Below are positions 9,001-11,597 of a stretch of 11,597 bases of DNA, in pieces (the first letter of the stretch is position 1; the number at the start of each line of letters is the position of its first letter). A program made the position numbers. The DNA comes from an archaeon (GTDB lineage: Archaea > Iainarchaeota > Iainarchaeia > Iainarchaeales > 1-14-0-10-31-34). The DNA lies in contig JBDRIL010000045.1 of the NCBI GenBank assembly GCA_043815885.1, positions 1 through 11,597 on the forward strand, written 5' to 3'.

Positions 9001-11597
9001 AGTTGCAAGAAAGCTGTATAAAAAAATCATTAAATCCAAATCAAAAAAAGATGTCTTGATTGTTGGCGCAAGGTCAATAGAGGAAGTCAATTACTTCAGG
9101 AAAAGAATGAAGAAAATCTTTATCGTGAAAATTGAAACGCCTTTGAAGGAGAGATTCAGCAGAAGGAGTTCTCTTGATCCTTCCACCCTGAAGGAATTCA
9201 GGAAGAGAGATTTAATTGATAAAAAGAACAAAGGAATGGAAAAAGTGTTGAGTAAAGCTGATTATATTATAAAAAATAATTCTGGAAAGATGGAATTGCA
9301 TAAAAAAATTGGTTTCTTAATAGAAAACATTTATAAACAGAAACGCGTAGTTGTTATTGGTGATAAGCTTTATGGCTATGGAAAACATTTTGAGTGATAC
9401 CGGAAACGCATTAATCCAAGCATTGTATAGCCTATGGGATACATTCGTTCTAACGATTCCAGGATTGCTTGCAGCTATAGTCTTAATTATCATTGGATGG
9501 ATCATCGGAAAAGTACTGAAGGAAGTAGTAGTCAGAATCATCAGGATAGCAAAAATAGATGAATGGGTCGAAGAACATAAACTTTCAGCTGTGATTGGCC
9601 ATGTTCCAATTTCAGCTATTGCAGGAACCATTGTAAAATGGTATGTAATCGTTTTGTTCTTGGCTCAGGCAGTAGCATTCATTCAGTTAAAAGTACTGGA
9701 GAACTTCCTGACTTATCTGTGGGTATTCATTCCAAGGGTGTTGGCTGCATTTGCTTTCATTGTAATGGGATTCCTGTTGGCTAGATATGTCAGAAACATG
9801 GTTGAAAAGACGGCTCACACGCACAAGGCAATCTTTGGACTTGTAATAGAGATAGTCATTATGTACGTTGCAGTAGTACTTGCCTTAATGAACATGGGCT
9901 TTGATGTAACAATACTGTTAGATGCATTCAGAATAGCATTGACAGCATTCGTTGTAATCTTTGCCTTAATCATTGGAATAGCGTTTGCAGTAGCATTCAA
10001 GAAAGACATACTTGGGTTCGCGACCGACATAAAGAAGCAGGTAAAGTAAAAAGTAAAGGGAATTTTTCTCCCTACTTTTTTTTCTTTTTATATAATTAAA
10101 TAGCTTTAAAAAGGTTTTATAGCAGAAATAAAAATATAATTAAACCCTAATTTTATTCTTTGATTAAAAGAATTACTTTAGGGCTAATATCAAAGGGCAA
10201 AAATATAGAAACAAAATTTGTCCTTTGATATAAACCTTGCGGAGGACAAACCTTATGGATAAAGTTGCAGAATTAAGGCCCTTTCAGAAAAGGGTTGAAT
10301 TGCTCGTGAAAGTAGTGGAAAAAACAGAAGAAAGAGAAGTTACCTCAAGACTGGACAATACCACTCACAGGGTATCAGAAGCAGTAGTGGGAGACGAAAC
10401 AGGAACAATACTTCTCACTCTGTGGGATGACCTCATAGACAAAATAGAGCAAGATAAAGTGTATAAGGTAACAAACGGTTACACCTCTCTCTTCAAGAAC
10501 ACCCTTAGACTGAATATCGGAAGATACGGTACAATAGAGGACTCAAGCGAAGAAATAGGAGAAGTAAACTCTGACAATAATGTATCAGAAAAAGAAATTC
10601 AGACAGGAGGAAGGTTCGGAGGAGAAAGAGGCGGTGGCTTCAGAAGAGGATTCGAGAAAAGAGAAAAACCAAAAAGAGAGGAAACAGAAGAAGAAGACAC
10701 AAGCGACGAAGACAAAGAAGATGACGAAGAAAGCGATGACGACTCAGAAGACGAACCAGAAGCTGATACAGAAGAAGACACTGCTTCTGAAAAAAGCAGT
10801 GGCGCAAAAGATAAAAAGAACAAGAAAAAAGAAGCTGCTGAAGAAACAAGCGACGAAGACAAAGAAGAAGACGAAGAAAGCGATGACGACTCAGAAGACG
10901 AACCAGAAGCTGATACAGAAGAAGACGAAGAACTGAAATAAACCGGAATTGATTTCTTCTATTTTTATTCTTTTTTTTATTGCATACCAAAGGCATGCAT
11001 TGTTTTTTTGATAAAACTCCCAATTTGAGTATAACTCAAATGGGTCCCTTTGAATCCTTAGATTCAAACAGGGTTTCTTAAAAGTTTTTTATTTATCTGC
11101 CTATTTACATAAACCTTAAAAACTGATTCCATTTCAATTACTAGAGTGATGGACTCATGAGAAGGGATCGACAAATACTGGCGGAAAATTGATTTTTCGG
11201 ATTCTATTATTGAATTAAATAATAATAAAAACGTTTTCTGGGGTGATAATTCTTTCAACACTTAAATTAAGTTTTCCTAGCGAAAGCAAGGAAATCCTAC
11301 TACCGAACGAAAGTGAGGTATTAGTGCGAAGCACGTACTACTGACCGAAGGGAAGTAGTACACTGACGTAAACCGGCAGTGGCGGTTTCGGGCCTGTAGC
11401 TCAGCCTGGTTAGAGCATTGGTCTTATACACCAAGTGTCGGGGGTTCAAATCCTCCCGGCCCACTAGCCCTTTCTTTAAAAAAGAAAGTGCTAGGACCCC
11501 AAAGAAAGAAGTTTCAAAAAAGAAAGGGAATTTAAATGAAAAAAAAGAAGTTATTGGAAGCGTATTCTCTTGAGAAAGAGAATGAAGTAAAAAAATT

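Follow-up and report, generated by a model that had tools for sequence, protein, structure and literature searches.

How can a tRNA with U34 decode the isoleucine codon AUA but leave the AUG codon of methionine unread, in an archaeon in which the agmatidine enzyme TiaS was not found? The question is raised by a tRNA-Ile(UAU) gene in the window analysed here, the whole 11,597-nucleotide stretch of contig JBDRIL010000045.1 (C45) from an Iainarchaeota genome (G000; assembly GCA_043815885.1). In the available passages of the literature, a UAU anticodon is treated as rare or lost in Archaea (PMC6000648, 10.1101/614032, PMC3895270, PMC3919564, PMC8007984), with a tRNA-UAU gene counted in 2 of 167 archaeal genomes (PMC6000648).

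The tRNA-Ile(UAU) gene and its locus

The gene is intronless and lies on the + strand. ARAGORN calls tRNA-Ile(tat) at 11389-11464, as in the preliminary description, and Rfam RF00005 agrees with a match to 11390-11463 (56.3 bits, E 3e-10), the bounds adopted here. The anticodon U34-A35-U36 occupies 11425-11427 and is found identically in at least 175 of the 215 genomes of the phylum. The tRNA has discriminator A73 and the pairs C4-G69 and U12-A23, and its D-arm is the same as that of the elongator tRNA-Met of G000. Folding z-scores of single tRNAs (-1.2 to -1.9) were uninformative.

In the window copy, the 3′ acceptor strand is one base short, behind position 11457. A contig from run X2 covers 11322-11482 with zero mismatches and one additional A at this place, giving a full 7-bp stem; this evidence on the stem is one contig at depth 3.8. 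The missing A is also present in a second copy of the gene, called by ARAGORN at C19:1651-1726. The absent base is an assembly slip, and the X2 contig implies that the real gene combines the 5′ flank of the window with the full stem. In the C19 copy the 5′ acceptor strand differs, and two of its positions mispair with the 3′ strand of that copy. Because the fragment of a single-stranded DNA-binding protein (SSB) gene that opens contig C19, upstream of the tRNA, is 72% identical to the SSB gene upstream of the tRNA in the window (10237-10941, + strand), the C19 copy looks like a join of a relative's 5′ flank and this locus; this agrees with its earlier description as the same gene with another 5′ flank. 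RNA run X9 gave no coverage of the tRNA, and runs X1 and X3 no contig bridging it.

Downstream of the tRNA, the start of ileS, the isoleucyl-tRNA synthetase (IleRS) gene, is found at 11536-11597 (+ strand), cut by the contig end; the full frame of 954 aa lies behind the C19 copy. Of the 19 UAU loci checked, 9 have an IleRS motif at most 1.5 kb downstream; among the ten without it, one is cut by a contig end. In a quick tree of IleRS, phyla are mixed and no UAU-specific clade is seen. A run of short hairpins (11270-11388, + strand) ends just before the tRNA. It was considered as a leader and rejected, being a member of a genome-dispersed repeat family not specific to this tRNA, with BLASTN matches on C8, C14, C18, C20, C21, C49, C52, C61, C62 and elsewhere in C45.

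Decoding components of the genome and the meaning of AUA

The preliminary description held that the genome has no TiaS, on a search limited to its FLD domain (PF08489), which was not found in this 91.7% complete assembly. The full-length model NF040849 has now been run as well and leads to the same view: the only match in G000 has 17.8 bits across 32 model positions. TiaS was likewise not found in 8 of 8 other members of the family. The model TIGR03280 was rejected for this purpose, since it describes methanogenesis marker 11, a relative of TiaS. The search with the TilS model stayed below its cut-off, and for the two PP-loop matches (PF01171) in G000 the highest scores are those of NcsA/TtuA and ThiI; the sequence comparisons support the view that no TilS stands in for TiaS.

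Genome-wide, ARAGORN again places tRNA-Ile(GAU) at C12:22952-23026. The CAU genes number exactly two, one of elongator type by its stems (C18:300-375) and one of initiator type (C36:27641-27716). This count is drawn from an incomplete tRNA set, without a tRNA-Tyr or Thr(UGU) call in the 91.7% complete assembly, and is weak for G000 alone, so that the weight of the argument lies with the relatives. Elp3 is intact, Kae1 is present and a TruA/Pus1-family enzyme (PF01416) was not found, each in 5 of 5 genomes searched.

The meaning of AUA was derived by comparing codons with homologous residues. G000 was set against 400 kb each of G179 and G018 and against 231 and 258 kb of the TiaS-bearing genomes G212 and G213, with 127, 216, 53 and 82 reciprocal best hits, respectively, and partner residues were tallied from non-ATA codons only. 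Opposite ATA columns of G000, the G179 partner has Ile at 0.476, Val at 0.210 and Met at 0.052 (n = 676 non-ATA partner codons); for ATT columns the values are Ile 0.492 and Met 0.029, and for ATG columns Ile 0.077 and Met 0.484. With G018, G212 and G213 as partners, Met amounts to 0.046-0.057 at ATA and 0.41-0.59 at ATG. ATA is common (25-30 per 1000 codons), and by these alignments AUA is an isoleucine codon.

TiaS and tRNA-Ile(UAU) across Iainarchaeota

Among 215 Iainarchaeota genomes, 25 match NF040849 at E 0.001, and only G212 and G213 do so over the whole model (E 1e-116 and 1e-126), with all four TiaS domains in both. The 23 weak matches, including that of G000, were discarded as partial (at most 24.8 bits, positions 214-413) and outside the catalytic domains. 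The model detects 4 of 4 control archaea; neither these nor G212 and G213 reach its curated cut-off. The UAU gene is present in at least 175 of the 215 genomes: a 5′-half pattern finds it in 135, a 3′-half pattern in another 39 (counted from the 150 rows listed, beside 30 more, with 16 non-tRNA-like ones dropped), and one more, interrupted by an intron and truncated at a contig end, lies in G214. The figure is a lower bound, exact patterns overlooking variants.

Besides the elongator tRNA-Met, G212 and G213 encode a CAU tRNA whose acceptor stem is of Ile type and which has the pairs C29-G41 and A31-U39. The UAU gene was not found in either by four whole-genome pattern searches and in fetched regions (the genomes being 87% and 79% complete), and TiaS and the UAU tRNA appear to be mutually exclusive within the phylum. 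The reverse state, UAU gene present and TiaS not found, is seen in the single-contig genomes G179, G083 and G026. The distribution supports a replacement of the agmatidine system by the UAU tRNA in G000 and nearly all of Iainarchaeota. What had been described from smaller samples, TiaS rare and UAU common among relatives, is borne out by the counts of full-length TiaS (2/215) and of UAU genes (at least 175/215); the stronger statement, that the phylum as a whole had made the exchange, stands for nearly all members but fails for G212 and G213, which keep the four-domain enzyme and its CAU tRNA-Ile2.

Contamination as the source of these two cases is argued against by several features: the RNA polymerase tree and the IleRS tree both join G212 and G213 as sisters, their two TiaS proteins form a group, and the GC content of their TiaS contigs is the same as that of the rest. 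They are placed as sister to the window's order, inside Iainarchaeota (SH-aLRT 94-95); a basal position within the phylum was not rejected (p-AU 0.078), and one outside Iainarchaeota plus Micrarchaeota was (p-AU 7e-7). TiaS has either been lost several times or been regained once. Two quick trees put the TiaS of G212 and G213 beside Asgard-labelled proteins. No Asgard donor is claimed for a regain; a grouping with Altiarchaeales was not rejected and has the higher likelihood (p-AU 0.71), so the TiaS tree does not decide between loss and regain. For the UAU tRNA itself, tRNA-Lys(UUU) was suggested as parent by BLAST matches and by G29-C41, and was set aside. The Korarchaeum gene has been traced to Ile(GAU), whereas the window tRNA is about equally near to three candidates, with mean identities outside the anticodon of 0.705 to Lys(UUU), 0.704 to Ile(GAU) and 0.693 to Ile2(CAU).

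Beyond Iainarchaeota: other DPANN groups

The preliminary description presented this state as a trait of Iainarchaeota, but samples of three other DPANN phyla display it too. At a threshold of E 1e-20, no TiaS was found in 201 Micrarchaeota, in 251 genomes of the phylum of the Woesearchaeota records (the Nanoarchaeota group) or in 151 Aenigmatarchaeota, and UAU genes occur in all three. The samples were drawn from larger groups, and phylum names were taken from record titles, which agree with the RNA polymerase tree. Over the samples of all four DPANN phyla, 818 genomes together, TiaS was found in 2. TiaS proteins with an Altiarchaeales label exist, so not all DPANN are without it.

The UAU pattern, counted in the Micrarchaeota and Aenigmatarchaeota samples, matched genes in 145/201 and 42/151 genomes; it is strict, and many such genes are split by introns. 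The Micrarchaeota tallies include the unpublished G416 and G247, without which they become 0/199 for TiaS and 143/199 for UAU. In a species collection, the pattern hits at least 115 stretches, with titles mostly of Woesearchaeota, Pacearchaeota, Nanoarchaeota, Micrarchaeota, Aenigmatarchaeota and Iainarchaeum/Diapherotrites; a small number of these stretches bear bacterial or other labels.

Nor were Nanoarchaeum and Korarchaeum the only Archaea documented with a UAU tRNA, as had been stated: three DPANN genomes, ARMAN-2, -4 and -5 (Micrarchaeota and Parvarchaeota), have been reported to have tRNA-Ile(UAU) and to be without tRNA-Ile(CAU) and TiaS (Fujishima et al. 2011, PMC3239211). Their report is alike in all these respects and differs in covering three genomes, with no survey, and in an ARMAN-2 gene with an intron at 37/38; positions 31-39 and 38 are not discussed in its available passages. 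The present finding is a further case of a known solution, much wider than printed, together with a sequence signature in the anticodon arm.

The anticodon arm

In the window, the anticodon arm spans 11418-11434 (+ strand) and combines G29-C41, U31-A39 (11422 and 11430) and C32/C38 (11423 and 11429). A37, at 11428, thus has the context 36-UAC-38, not 36-UAA-38. For comparison with relatives, introns were removed in silico and 14 loci with an unparsable 3′ half were left out; one row, from Nanoarchaeota, appears to be mis-parsed.

Among distinct sequences, 32 of 33 from Iainarchaeota pair U31 with A39 or G39, as do 10 of 10 from Micrarchaeota and 30 of 30 from Woese-, Pace- and Nanoarchaeota. 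U31 by itself is found in 145/145 Micrarchaeota rows and 38/42 Aenigmatarchaeota genomes, whereas just 4 of 61 further Iainarchaeota tRNAs have it, all of them tRNA-Thr. It is near-invariant over four phyla while neighbouring pairs vary. G29-C41 prevails in the UAU tRNAs, and tRNA-Ile(GAU) has C29-G41 in 13/13. C38 has a narrower range: it is present in 128 of 134 tRNA-like rows of the window's order, where it is fixed while the acceptor stem drifts, and in 0 of 50 other NNU tRNAs. It was found in none of the Micrarchaeota (0/10), Woese-, Pace- and Nanoarchaeota (0/30) and parsed Aenigmatarchaeota genes (0/18), and the outlying Iainarchaeota families f33, f34 and f37 are also without it. Since all these groups manage without C38, this base is not needed for the UAU system.

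Introns differ as well. All 30 Woese-, Pace- and Nanoarchaeota UAU genes have one at 37/38. In 20 of these 30, the intron has a helix strand exactly complementary to positions 32-35 with U34, in support of the reading frame; intronless genes make up 27 of the 33 distinct sequences from the window's order.

The triplet 36-UAA-38 has been described as a strict determinant for t6A37, tested in the eukaryotic cytosol and mitochondria and inferred elsewhere (PMC13276492). C38 breaks this determinant, and a loss of t6A37 is predicted; with Kae1 present in 5/5 genomes, the loss would be selective for this one tRNA. The available literature yielded nothing on U31 or C38 in tRNA-Ile(UAU).

How U34 may read AUA and spare AUG

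The tRNA is very probably an AUA-reading isoleucine tRNA of a cell without an agmatidine or lysidine system, charged by the IleRS encoded directly downstream and with U34 pairing to the third A of AUA. Charging with isoleucine would follow from the linkage to ileS, the elements A73, C4-G69 and U12-A23, and the meaning of AUA. As for AUG, the sequences suggest that the tRNA would be built for weak binding. The pair beside the loop is U31-A39 or U31·G39. With C38 in place of A38, as in the window's order, KEOPS should not add t6A37, which strengthens the stacking on the U36-A1 pair. A Watson-Crick helix on AUA would still pass, the weaker U34·G wobble on AUG would fail, and elongator tRNA-Met would out-compete the remaining AUG binding. 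The whole of this reading, including the step that spares AUG, is given a probability of about 0.45.

In its favour is counted a Bacillus subtilis suppressor with unmodified U34 and A37 partly t6A, which reads AUA strongly and AUG weakly, AUG binding being abolished by competition with tRNA-Met (PMC3919564). Other observations are counted against it. Several DPANN groups manage with A38, and M. mobile combines t6A37 with a discriminating ribosome (see below). Mycoplasma capricolum tRNA-Ala(UGC), with C32/C38 and unmodified U34, is believed capable of reading four codons (PMC6103715). In haloarchaeal U34 mutants the base was converted to 5-cyanomethyl-U and AUG was bound (PMC3895270); the product is of the type made by Elp3, which is intact here. 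G29-C41 and C38 also deviate from the E. coli Ile identity set (PMC9976931). Further, KEOPS of this lineage could differ from the tested A38 rule, and C38 may be a single inherited change, in which case the 128 rows are not independent.

The strongest competing explanation, in itself unlikely, keeps the same tRNA and AUA as isoleucine and lets the ribosome, with competition from tRNA-Met, reject U34·G, as in Mycoplasma mobile, whose tRNA-Ile(UAU) bears t6A37 and whose ribosome discriminates (PMC3575796). U31 and C38 would then be marks of the lineage, or serve IleRS or splicing rather than decoding. Three DPANN groups do run the system with A38, and kin share bases by descent; against this explanation stand a U31 that is near-invariant over four phyla despite varying neighbour pairs and seldom seen in other Iainarchaeota tRNAs, and a C38 held fixed beside a drifting acceptor stem.

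Modification of U34 after transcription, to pseudouridine, an Elp3 product, an NcsA-like thio-U or something new, could also restrict pairing to A, though this is judged improbable. Modification to pseudouridine 34 is intron-dependent in yeast. Elp3 and an NcsA/TtuA-like thiolase are present, and many DPANN UAU genes have the 37/38 intron (the 30/30 above); yet most genes of the window's order are intronless (27/33), the 5/5 genomes searched gave no TruA/Pus1-family enzyme, and the known archaeal U34 product read AUG (PMC3895270).

A pseudogene or assembly artefact, with AUA read by an unassembled CAU tRNA and a diverged TiaS, would explain why both copies in the assembly have a damaged acceptor stem and why other tRNAs are missing too. 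This reading is largely refuted, and very unlikely, given the intact stem of the independent X2 contig, the intact orthologues of relatives with compensating stem changes, the single-contig genomes G179, G083 and G026 with a UAU gene and no TiaS found, and a TiaS model that detects 4/4 control archaea as well as G212 and G213. Reassignment of AUA to methionine, as in many mitochondria, with a Met-charged tRNA, is rejected as next to impossible: the gene shares the D-arm of elongator tRNA-Met and is without two E. coli Ile identity elements (G29-C41 and C38 deviate from that set, in a table where archaeal elements are blank; PMC9976931), but it is linked to ileS, and ATA aligns with Ile, Val and Leu, with Met at only 0.046-0.057 in all four genome comparisons.

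Comparison with known systems and significance

The nearest archaeal parallels, tRNA-Ile3(UAU) of Nanoarchaeum equitans and Korarchaeum cryptofilum, are alike in that UAU replaces Ile2(CAU) (10.1101/614032; PMC6000648), but they were presented as rare species-specific gains, whereas here the state is the rule in four sampled DPANN phyla. In Bacteria, M. mobile tRNA-Ile2(UAU) (PMC3575796) and the B. subtilis suppressor of a tilS deletion (PMC3919564) likewise read AUA as isoleucine with U34 and without lysidine. These systems are experimentally shown, while the window tRNA is known from its sequence. They also differ in position 37: M. mobile keeps t6A37 and relies on the ribosome, and that of B. 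subtilis combines A38 with partial t6A, whereas C38 of the window tRNA predicts none. The agmatidine system (TiaS with tRNA-Ile2 CAU) does the same job in G212, G213 and, by protein labels, Altiarchaeales; it is absent from G000 and from 213 of the 215 genomes of the phylum. In eukaryotes, a tRNA-Ile(UAU) with pseudouridine 34 needs a Pus1-type enzyme. It resembles the present case in its genomic UAU anticodon for AUA (PMC3895270) and differs in that no TruA/Pus1-family match was found in 5/5 genomes and that the window gene is intronless.

Tentatively, and with considerable doubt, most DPANN may have dropped agmatidine and let the tRNA's own sequence separate AUA from AUG, by a loose U31 pair everywhere and by C38, with no t6A37, in the window's order; the one TiaS clade inside UAU territory would then be a natural control, possibly a reversal. 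A DPANN-wide census was not found in the literature searched (mostly open papers, in their main texts), and the lack of TiaS may already stand in the gene tables published with DPANN genomes. Reviews hold the archaeal UAU tRNA to be lost or rare (PMC8007984, PMC6000648), against TiaS in only 2 of the 818 DPANN genomes sampled here. How U34 reads AUA and not AUG is the question left by the haloarchaeal work, where engineered U34 isoleucine tRNAs were modified and misread AUG (PMC3895270), and hundreds of natural sequences now point to two positions, 31-39 and 38. If C38 does not remove t6A37, the finding is a wider census of a known solution; if it does, this tRNA would contradict the universality ascribed to the modification in ANN-reading tRNAs.

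Genes and repeats of the window

The tRNA gene beside its own synthetase gene, as seen for Ile, has a counterpart in the same window, where two tRNA-Pro genes (5658-5733 and 6027-6102) lie directly upstream of proS (4059-5543). An intron-bearing tRNA-Trp gene (381-525) is overlooked when introns are not searched for, and several intron-bearing tRNA genes of this genome are mis-assigned by ARAGORN. Two neighbouring ORFs of 185 and 224 aa (1205-2429) were without a match in an NCBIfam search; from its motif, the beginning of the second presumably resembles a PIN domain.

A family of short stacked-hairpin repeats, whose copies frequently adjoin tRNA genes, occurs in the window (169-348, 5826-5859, 6284-6337 and 11270-11388) and elsewhere in the genome (contigs C8, C14, C18, C20, C21, C49, C52, C61 and C62). 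Comparison of the copies reveals compensating changes in the stems, and related hairpins are found 5′ of the tRNA-Ile(UAU) gene in several relatives; an Rfam search of the window returned tRNAs as the sole matches. Many tRNA introns of the genome (contigs C26, C28 and C29) share an A/T-tract hairpin, which the hairpin located 3′ of the UAU gene (11468-11530) resembles.

Diversity of UAU genes and of IleRSs

UAU genes are also present in records of Saccharibacteria and Parcubacteria (L104, L117 and L159), with position 38 being C in L159 and U in L104. The UAU genes L078 and L090, from other archaeal genomes, combine C38 with an intron. Unlike the remaining UAU genes, that of an Aenigmatarchaeota genome (L145, G219) displays an Ile2-like anticodon arm (C29-G41, A31-U39) and perhaps arose by an independent C34-to-U change. 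On the synthetase side, a quick tree separates the IleRSs of two Iainarchaeota (L362 in G179 and L366 in G132) from those of the other members of the order and clusters one of the two with a Pacearchaeota enzyme; judging from this tree, both were likely replaced by transfer.

Lineages with TiaS

Among TiaS proteins, an Altiarchaeales-labelled one (P0124, 596 aa) exceeds the usual length, is annotated at source as 5-formyltetrahydrofolate cyclo-ligase and is possibly a fusion protein. In G213, ARAGORN calls a putative Leu(aag) gene (among loci L326-L345); A34 tRNAs are rare in archaea, ARMAN-4 and ARMAN-5 being reported to have them (PMC3239211).

G213 and G212 form a two-genome Iainarchaeota clade having TiaS plus tRNA-Ile2(CAU) (L001 on G213:C4 and L002 on G212:C21; also L038 and L039), and a third, closely similar TiaS (P0002) comes from a metagenome. 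This clade either kept or regained the enzyme and its tRNA.
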